A stretch of 64,000 nt of DNA, taken from sequence record MT782071.1. One strand, 5' to 3'. Source of the stretch: Escherichia phage JN02. This document shows positions 41,737 through 42,384 of this stretch, one piece after another. Below the pieces are notes generated by a model. It had not been told where the DNA came from. It ran no database searches and saw only the letters and a list, made by a program, of their open reading frames with translations. How positions within the stretch are numbered: the stretch's first letter is position 1; each line of letters begins with the position of its first letter. The position numbers and the translations under genes are program-made.

Positions 41737-41763
41737 GGACCCGAAGGTCCCCATTCTTTACTT
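41737..41763 (-). repeat. Conserved 3' hairpin element, copy 2 (GGGACC-cgaa-GGTCCC core)
   Basis: Same ~27-nt sequence as at 22479-22505, again overlapping or abutting the stop codon of a gene driven by a late promoter. Confidence 0.6.
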
Positions 41764-42384
41764 ACGAGTTTTTGCATACTGAGCAGCGTCAGCAGCCAAA
41801 CGACCTGCCTGACGAAGTTTTTCTTTAATCGCATCGTGAAGTGGTTGAGTATACTTCAAACCTTCGATAGTCAAATAAAGACGATAAAGGTCTGGGGTAT
41901 CAAGGTTGTTGATATGTTGGCCATTGCGAAGAATATTGAATTCACGAACGAGTGAAGATGTATCGGATTCAATATCGCGAACAAGCGAAGATAGTTGTTT
42001 ATATTTTTTTTCCAGGCTAGAAGTATCAAACTTAAGAGCAGGAGCTTTAGGAGTTGCTTTTACTTCAGGCTTAGGCTCAGGTTTTGCTATTGCTTTAGGG
42101 GCCGCAGGTTTAGGAATGGTAGGAGCAGGTTTTACTTTAGGCGAACCAGATTTAGCAGGAACACCACCACTAACAATATCTTTGAATGCTTTAGAAGCTC
42201 TGTAATATTCTTTTTGGCTCGAAGTGTCGATACCGTACATGGCTTGAACGTTTTTGAAAAACTCTGTACTAGTTTTTGTACCAGAAATAGCATCATAAGC
42301 AGCTCGCCATTTCTCTTTTGTCATACGTACACCGGCTTCGGTGATTACTTCCGTTTCGGCTAAAAATTCATTAAAAGTATACAT
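41758..42384 (-). CDS. Internal-protein-like head protein with CTS-like N-terminus and Pro/Lys/Ala-rich linker (208 aa)
   Basis: N-terminus MYTFNEFLAETE resembles the T4 capsid-targeting sequence; central PKVKPAPTIPKPAAPKAIAKPEPKPEVKATPKAP low-complexity stretch; late promoter upstream. Confidence 0.55.
   Translation of the reverse strand: MYTFNEFLAETEVITEAGVRMTKEKWRAAYDAISGTKTSTEFFKNVQAMYGIDTSSQKEYYRASKAFKDIVSGGVPAKSGSPKVKPAPTIPKPAAPKAIAKPEPKPEVKATPKAPALKFDTSSLEKKYKQLSSLVRDIESDTSSLVREFNILRNGQHINNLDTPDLYRLYLTIEGLKYTQPLHDAIKEKLRQAGRLAADAAQYAKTRK

Follow-up and report, generated by a model that had tools for sequence, protein, structure and literature searches.

The window analyzed here is the whole 64,000-nucleotide (64-kb) stretch of Escherichia phage JN02 (MT782071.1), a T4-like coliphage of the genus Mosigvirus. 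Its minus strand contains a gene of 208 codons, hereafter the target gene, which lies directly downstream of the rnaD and rnaC stable RNA genes and encodes a predicted precursor of an internal head protein (internal protein, IP). Over the 1.7 kb around the target gene, phage GADS24 showed 98.6% identity, and many relatives of Mosigvirus mar005P1, JS09, and HX01 showed 96-98%. The features of the gene and of its surroundings are collected in Table 1.

Table 1. Features of the target gene and its neighborhood in the 64-kb window.
Feature	Position	Strand	Basis or remark
Coding sequence, 208 aa, ATG start, predicted internal head protein precursor	41758..42384	(-)	PHROG 2280
Codons 1-16, CTS-like propeptide MYTFNEFLAE; L-A-E ends at residue 10, I-T-E at residue 16	42337..42384	(-)	
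Leader, residues 1-18			Disordered; AlphaFold2
N-terminal three-helix domain, residues 18-73	42166..42333	(-)	AlphaFold2 helices 23-31, 39-50, 57-72; pLDDT 79-86
Pro/Ala/Lys-rich disordered spacer, residues 74-116	42037..42165	(-)	AlphaFold2 pLDDT 33-35
C-terminal helical domain, residues 117-208	41761..42036	(-)	AlphaFold2 helices 122-153, 164-177, 180-206; pLDDT 82-90
AlphaFold2 layout			N-domain 20-73, pLDDT ~84; spacer 74-113; three-helix C-domain 122-206, pLDDT ~86
Shine-Dalgarno TAAGGA	42391..42396	(-)	6 nt 5' of ATG; read from sequence
T4-type late promoter motif TATAAATA	42420..42427	(-)	1 nt past terminator T-run, 35 nt 5' of ATG
Intrinsic terminator, AAAGCCCC..GGGGCUUU stem, GAAA-capped inner stem, U8 tail	42429..42461	(-)	Folding
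3' hairpin GGGGACC-UUCG-GGUCCC, then UUUAGGGGG	41727..41752	(-)	Hairpin 41752..41736, -12.9 kcal/mol
T4-early-type promoter GTTTAC, 17 nt spacer, TACTAT	41676..41704	(-)	For next gene (41342-41647)
rnaD and rnaC-like stable RNA genes	42503..42760	(-)	93% mean column identity to T4 rnaD/rnaC region and RB69
57B	45153-45608	(-)	
ipI	44788-45075	(-)	Pfam IPI_T4 (PF11634), E = 1e-50
trna.4, trna.3, trna.2 homologues; tRNA-Met, tRNA-Arg; ORF150c homologue; rnaD, rnaC		(-)	In this order downstream of ipI
Target gene; homologues of RB69 ORF146c, ORF145c, frd.3		(-)	After rnaC
e.6, e.5 and so on, to nudE and e; small-ORF cluster around denV		(-)	Next

The PHROG 2280 gene and its predicted product

The target gene was assigned to the PHROG 2280 family. 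Its profile was matched at E = 4.4e-57, with residues 1-203 aligned to profile positions 1-178 of 178. In all records inspected, which cover ~300 T4-like phage genomes, the family carries the label "hypothetical" or "unknown function", and the orthologues range from 97% to 22% identity to the target. An exhaustive HMMER profile search of 1.84 billion representatives returned 14 representatives at 50% identity, of which 13 are family members and all of these belong to T4-like phages. The weakest match, P0028, was rejected as a spurious member, being a repeat protein that has only the word FDTSSL in common with the family. The family is therefore small and confined to T4-like phages of enterobacteria. 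The profile was also matched by RB14 ORF136c (E = 1.4e-53), by Marfa (1e-41), and, in its N-terminal half only, by CIP9.

The overall dN/dS ratio between the target and three orthologues was 0.16-0.27, and it was 0.06-0.37 in the two domains and 0.5-1.2 in the spacer; dS was saturated in these three comparisons and the ratios are rough. Both domains are under purifying selection, and the spacer evolves freely, apparently constrained in composition only. The target is a real and conserved gene.

AlphaFold2, run on a shallow alignment, gave two helical domains joined by a disordered spacer (Table 1). The C-domain is the most conserved part of the protein (FDTSSL..KKY..LVREF..RNGQHINNL.TPDLY.LYLTIE.LKYTQP). 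The spacer consists of 28% P, 21% A, and 21% K and carries a net charge of +6.8. Its length and sequence vary among the orthologues; it is of near-neutral charge in P0022 and short in RB69 and RB14. A weak NCBIfam match to TonB was confined to this Pro-rich region (16.7 bits against a cut-off of 315 bits) and was rejected as compositional. The domains themselves are exchanged within the family. The N-domain is joined to unrelated C-domains in CIP9, P0023, and P0026, and a different N-region is joined to the conserved C-domain in P0025 and P0027. Every one of these domain-shuffled members (P0023, P0025, P0026, P0027, and CIP9 2501-3127) has kept the leader that resembles a capsid targeting sequence (CTS). 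The mature target protein is predicted to have a mass of ~21-22 kDa and a net charge between +13 and +15.

Previous work on T4 has defined the determinants of the CTS. Amber-suppression experiments on IPIII showed that the first 10 residues suffice to package foreign proteins; targeting depends on residues 4 and 7 and processing on residues 8 and 10, with L/I-x-E as the motif after which the gp21 prohead protease cleaves (PMC9026906). All four experimentally defined determinants are kept in the target, as F4, F7, L8, and E10. The corresponding targeting residues are Y4 and F7 in T4 IPIII and F4 and F7 in T4 IPI. Position 4 is aromatic and position 7 is F or I in every member of PHROG 2280. The target protein has three L/I-x-E sites in total. 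One of them is a second predicted gp21 site, I14-T15-E16 followed by Ala, which is the same tetrapeptide as the cleavage site of IPI. The orthologues begin with MKTYNEFLNE in Dhakavirus, with MKTYAEFLTE in RB69 and RB14, and with ML[KN]F[NK]EF[IL].E in other genera. All of these leaders are then followed by an x-x-E site before A or S, though the bodies of the proteins are only 22-70% identical to the target. The leaders of the orthologues are the strongest evidence for reading the N-terminus of the target as a putative CTS.

The loose pattern M-x-x-[YF]-x-[ED]-[FLIM]-[ILVF] was matched six times in the six frames of the window, every time at the start of an ORF. These six CTS-like ORFs are ipI, four ORFs at 31663-33416 that flank denV in the equivalent of the ipII/ipIII locus, and the target. 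Five of them read MK[TM]Y.EF, and for three of the six the PHROG or Pfam family carries an annotation as internal head or virion protein. The four minus-strand ORFs around denV carry a canonical CTS (MKTY.EF[IL].E or MKMYQEFIAE). Two of these, 32018-32332 and 31663-31992, belong to phrog_3966 ("unknown function") and are therefore also unannotated internal-protein candidates.

Beyond the leader, the mature region of the target has no homology to the named IPs (IPI, IPII, and IPIII). The hhalign comparison with T4 IPIII covered residues 1-25 only, with a probability of 26%. Homology of the mature region to IPIII was rejected, since the alignment stops at residue 25. Known IPs likewise have only the leader in common with one another (PMC12373910), so that a lack of such homology does not disqualify the target.

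The initial annotation of this locus had proposed a 208-aa ORF at 41758-42384 with a CTS-like N-terminus and a low-complexity segment rich in Pro, Lys, and Ala. The ORF was found exactly there on the minus strand, with an ATG start and the first residues MYTFNEFLAETE. The CTS determinants were present, with a canonical CTS in the Dhakavirus, RB69, and RB14 orthologues, and the low-complexity segment was located at residues 74-116 and is predicted to be disordered. The protein had also been described as unlike the classical small IPs. This holds for the architecture of two domains plus a linker but not for the size, since T4 IPIII has 193 aa.

Transcription signals and the 3' element

The terminator upstream of the target gene consists of a hairpin at 42461..42434 and a T8 run at 42436..42429, with a folding energy of -21 kcal/mol (z = -3.56). 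A simple terminator scan missed it because of an internal loop, and folding confirmed it. It is the conserved end of the rnaD/rnaC stable RNA genes and is kept in T4, RB69, RB14, and JS98. No Rfam family matched the rnaD/rnaC-like RNAs or the hairpins of the window in an Rfam search. A 42-aa ORF at 42557-42685 overlaps rnaC and is annotated as a coding sequence in relatives (e.g., G2469_00144), but it is probably a spurious call.

The late promoter octamer TATAAATA occurs eight times in the window against 7.6 copies expected, and the count alone is uninformative. Five of the eight copies lie 24-35 nt upstream of an ATG on the same strand, including those of the gp49-like and gp9-like late genes. 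ATAAATA, the core of the motif, is rarer than expected: 18 copies are present, dinucleotide shuffles predict 31.2, and none of the 100 shuffles contained fewer than 18. This depletion fits selection against stray late promoters. Furthermore, xATAAATA was found 28-41 nt upstream of the ATG in every orthologue examined, namely in JS98 (Dhakavirus), CBH8 (Winklervirus), Kosakonia 305 and CIP9 (Kanagawavirus), myPSH1140 (Karamvirus), Marfa, EcS1, RB69, and RB14, and the neighboring non-coding sequence has diverged. Because of its placement, the depletion of the core, and the conservation across the orthologues, the octamer in front of the target gene is meaningful despite the chance count.

Of the six genes with a CTS-like start in the window, only the target is preceded by an exact TATAAATA of its own, and the strong terminator would insulate it from early transcription upstream. 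The ipI gene and 32018-32332 have early-type promoters directly upstream, and the remaining CTS genes lie downstream of e, which has xATAAATA upstream. T4 has the exact TATAAATA before e and none before ipI, ipII, or ipIII.

On the 3' side, the gene is followed by a hairpin, then UUU[AC]GGG, and then the early promoter of the next gene. This composite is kept in the orthologous 3' flanks, where GTTTAC and TA..TAT are conserved. The stems of the hairpin differ and yet stay complementary (GGGGACC/GGTCCC, GGAGAC/GTCTCC, and GGGAGC/GCTCCC) in JS98, EcS1, CBH8, Marfa, and Kosakonia 305. These compensatory changes were read directly from the sequences, as a MAFFT alignment puts the stems out of register. 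The 14-nt core of the hairpin occurs twice in the window against 0.09 expected, with the identical second copy at 22489-22502. The hairpin probably stabilizes the 3' end of the transcript or acts as a weak terminator, and it marks the boundary of the cassette.

The second copy of the hairpin belongs to another "late cassette" on the minus strand, at 22395-22815. There, TATAAATA at 22815-22808 overlaps the end of a nucleotidyltransferase gene, and the ORF at 22509-22775 encodes 88 aa with a signal peptide (phrog_2243, unknown function). Downstream of this ORF, the hairpin element (ATGGGGACCTTCGGGTCCCTTTAGGGGGT) recurs as part of a longer stretch common to both loci, and an early-type promoter comes next, an arrangement also present on the 3' side of the target gene.

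A polymorphic site downstream of the tRNA cluster

The minus-strand gene order in the window parallels that of T4. The target gene lies between the rnaC terminator at the end of the tRNA cluster and the e.8/e.6 homologues, ~2.4 kb from ipI. We compared the locus in ten gene-carrying genomes of eight genera (the window, JS98, CBH8, Kosakonia 305, myPSH1140, Marfa, CIP9, EcS1, RB69, and RB14). In all ten, the gene occupied the same site, with the tRNA cluster just upstream and the e.8/e.6 homologues following. Where the rnaC terminator was identifiable (T4, RB69, RB14, and the window), the site follows it directly.

T4 lacks the gene; its site is cleanly empty and is flanked by the GGGCTTTTT of the two terminators, a short direct repeat. 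T4 joins the rnaC terminator (…GGGGCTTTTT) to the sequence that, in RB69, follows the gene's own terminator (…AGGGCTTTTTT). Among 698 records that share the flanking region, 138 carried the window-type allele and 165 the RB69/RB14-type allele, the two alleles being divergent. The gene is non-essential and polymorphic, as T4 and several hundred relatives lack it.

The RB69-type allele was found mostly in Tequatrovirus records, at 90-99% nucleotide identity to RB69 and, in most of the hits listed, with 572 nt against 571 in RB69. RB69 itself is a Mosigvirus, and its allele is 95-96% identical in nucleotides to those of Tequatrovirus phages; the Mosigvirus of the window carries the other allele. 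This distribution implies that the RB69-type allele has been exchanged across genus boundaries. The RB69 allele is annotated as ORF149c plus ORF148c, which represent one PHROG 2280 gene split by a 1-nt frameshift in the reference (NC_004928; locus sequence 7429-7991). The intact form in RB14 has 187 aa (locus sequence 705-1268) and matched the family profile with a probability of 91% by hhalign. In the window, the homologue of RB69 ORF146c follows directly after the target gene, so that the segment replaced relative to RB69 exceeds the allele itself. A comparison of 41342-41757 with RB69 also indicated that the window lacks e.8, e.7, and the second internal head protein of the RB69 ipI locus (RB69p156).

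From sequence comparison, the locus behaves as a replaceable cassette and is a hotspot of presence or absence and of allele replacement; it would be a third internal-protein site between rnaC and e.8. The initial annotation had suggested comparing related phages for mobility of the cassette. Presence or absence and allele replacement at one hotspot were confirmed, but the cassette does not roam freely, given its constant site in all ten genomes. The same annotation had placed a late promoter at 42420-42427 directly after a strong terminator and a conserved hairpin after the gene. Both were borne out, the promoter at its exact coordinates and with a motif conserved across orthologues, and the hairpin with compensatory stem changes.

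Probable assignment as an internal protein and comparison with known systems

We consider the target gene, with a probability of about 0.7, to encode an unannotated T4-type internal protein that infected cells would produce late. Its CTS would dock it onto the scaffolding core, gp21 would trim it, and it would remain in the head until it left together with the DNA. An IP-like gene in a self-contained late cassette, as originally envisaged, is supported by the CTS of the orthologues, the conserved late motif, the 3' element, and the empty site in T4.

Several observations weigh against this assignment. The gene lies outside both classical IP loci (57B-ipI-tRNA and e-ipIII-ipII-denV), and IP genes were said to be absent outside these two loci (Arbiol et al. 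2010, PMC2839356); as a family of putative IPs, PHROG 2280 is an exception to this restriction. None of the five other CTS-like starts in the window diverges as far as that of the target, which has Tyr instead of Lys2 and Phe instead of Tyr4. The folding energy of the 3' hairpin is unexceptional relative to shuffled sequence (z = -1.1). The target gave no Pfam match above noise, a PDB sequence profile search with it returned nothing, and Foldseek against BFVD returned family members only; its fold matches were generic helical bundles only, and none of the sequence or fold matches pointed to a function. For no family member did the literature on virion proteomes or transcriptomes of Mosigvirus, fHe-Yen9-01, JS98, Karamvirus/Dhakavirus/Winklervirus, and Tequatrovirus yield proteomic detection in virions, a sequenced N-terminus, a mapped 5' end of a transcript, or a phenotype of a mutant. 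The Jiaodavirus proteome paper covers phages that mostly lack the gene, and the fPS-90 paper has no proteomics. Furthermore, PHROG 2280 is syntenic across many genera with a well conserved C-domain. This conservation is less typical of anti-defence IPs, which are hypervariable, and a phage-internal role would account for it too.

With such a role, the product would be packaged and act inside the head, either as an accessory component of the prohead core or scaffold, or as a DNA-associated protein that neutralizes charge through a Lys-rich tether and basic helical domains. The AlphaFold2 model is highly helical, with long helices like those of scaffold proteins, and the predicted mature protein is strongly basic (+13 to +15). 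The lysines of T4 internal proteins contact DNA phosphates (PMC3012670), and the synteny in ten of ten gene-carrying genomes (eight genera) together with the conserved C-domain points in the same direction. However, the gene is dispensable, as its absence from T4 and several hundred relatives indicates, and the charge of the linker is not conserved (near neutral in P0022, short in RB69 and RB14). The presence of only three L/I-x-E sites argues against a degradation like that of core proteins, and the domain swapping around the linker suggests effector-like modules. We regard a head-internal function as unlikely.

We give even less credence to a late-expressed cytoplasmic protein that is never packaged and whose CTS-like start is a relic of recombination among the 5' ends of IP genes. 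Such a protein would agree with the departures from the CTS consensus at positions 2 and 4, with the location outside the classical IP loci, and with the lack of proteomic support in the literature. Yet the leader and the following x-x-E-A site are kept across orthologues that are otherwise 22-40% identical, which speaks for selection on the tag. F4 also occurs in the genuine T4 IPI, and 10 N-terminal residues are enough for packaging (PMC9026906). One could also argue that there is no gene here and that ORF and motifs came together by chance in AT-rich intergenic DNA, given the chance frequency of TATAAATA in the window and the opposite-strand ORFs that the low-complexity sequence also yields. 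This explanation is effectively refuted by the comparative data: full-length orthologues occur in ~300 phage genomes, the domains are under purifying selection, the PHROG match is strong (E = 4e-57), and the AlphaFold2 domains are confident (pLDDT ~85).

As an internal protein, the target would act in the following way. Early and middle transcription of the tRNA/rnaD/rnaC unit would stop at the strong terminator upstream of the gene. Late in infection, RNA polymerase modified by gp55 and gp33 would start at the conserved TATAAATA, so that the protein is made during prohead assembly. MYTFNEFLAE would serve as the capsid targeting sequence and dock the precursor on the gp22 scaffolding core, as its conserved determinants suggest. 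At the cleavage motifs, gp21 would cut after Glu10 (L-A-E) and/or after Glu16 (I-T-E, before Ala), leaving a strongly basic mature protein. This product, two predicted helical bundles on a flexible tether of ~40 residues, would stay in the DNA-filled head and exit with the DNA through the portal and tail when the next cell is infected, and its beads-on-a-string shape would suit the narrow portal-tail channel. Once in the new host, it may neutralize a host factor, and an inhibitor of restriction-type defence is our best guess. This guess is made because T4 Ip1, Ip2, and Ip3 each inhibit a distinct GmrSD type IV nuclease (PMC12373910). Another CTS-motif protein of the ipI locus behaves as an anti-restriction factor (bioRxiv 10.1101/2025.11.20.689424). 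By this analogy, inhibition of host defence is the likeliest role of the target after ejection, proposed tentatively and with odds somewhat short of even.

A more specific scenario, which we regard as rather doubtful, is that PHROG 2280 marks a third conserved IP locus encoding a modular, "two-headed" injected effector with a target other than GmrSD, expressed strictly late from its dedicated promoter. Its two exchangeable helical domains might then bind different partners simultaneously, such as a host defence or envelope factor on one side and the phage DNA, or the end of it, on the other.

The significance of the assignment lies in the distribution of the family. PHROG 2280 occurs in ~300 T4-like phages with sequenced genomes, including many candidates for therapy, and sits outside the loci that are usually searched for IPs. 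Because Ip1, Ip2, and Ip3 each block a different type IV nuclease, every further CTS-tagged protein is a candidate for an injected counter-defence factor. Recognition of the family gives a concrete candidate for host-range and anti-defence screens and extends the map of internal-protein hotspots. For CTS-based delivery of proteins by T4, the family also provides a naturally occurring design of a two-domain cargo. The class of CTS-tagged IPs in shuffling cassettes is already well known; the PHROG 2280 family, the third locus, and the tethered, domain-swapping two-domain architecture are unannotated in the databases and literature searched.

The spacer resembles the Pro-rich region of TonB, in its composition of P/A/K with some E, its predicted disorder or extended conformation, its variable length, and its position between folded domains. 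The two are non-homologous, however: the weak match covered only TonB residues 71-116, and the target lacks the C-terminal domain and the membrane anchor of TonB. The Ala/Pro linkers of the 2-oxoacid dehydrogenase E2 are similar in kind to the spacer.

PeSL (promoter-early stem-loop) cassettes, and IP-associated analogues of them in T-even phages, have been described (Arbiol et al. 2010, PMC2839356; Comeau et al. 2014, PMC4122927). Arbiol et al. ascribe PeSL-like elements to the IP loci, and the composite of hairpin and early promoter downstream of the target gene matches these. In both PeSL cassettes and the target locus, a variable ORF is flanked by a stem-loop that leads directly into an early promoter, copies of the element recur in the genome, and deletion and allele replacement are bounded by stem-loops and terminators. 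In contrast to PeSL cassettes, the target cassette carries its own late promoter on the 5' side, and the target gene stays at one syntenic site in the ten genomes compared.

The closest counterparts are the T4 IPs themselves (IPIII with 193 aa, IPI, and IPII; Repoila et al. 1994; Mullaney & Black 1996). Like these, the target has a 10-residue CTS-type N-terminus ending in L/I-x-E, and it is close to IPIII in size, basic, non-essential, polymorphic, and bounded by stem-loop and promoter elements. With T4 IPI in particular, it shares the CTS-type leader, Phe at position 4, and the I-T-E-A tetrapeptide. IPI differs in forming a single compact alpha/beta domain of 76 residues after a propeptide of 19 residues, with no similarity to the target in sequence or fold. 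Unlike the T4 IPs, the target has no homology to them past the N-terminus and is predicted to consist of two helical domains on a Pro/Ala/Lys spacer of ~40 residues, with domain swapping. While the other IP genes of the window have early or upstream promoters, the target has its own exact late promoter directly after a terminator, and it occupies a third site, from rnaC to e.8.

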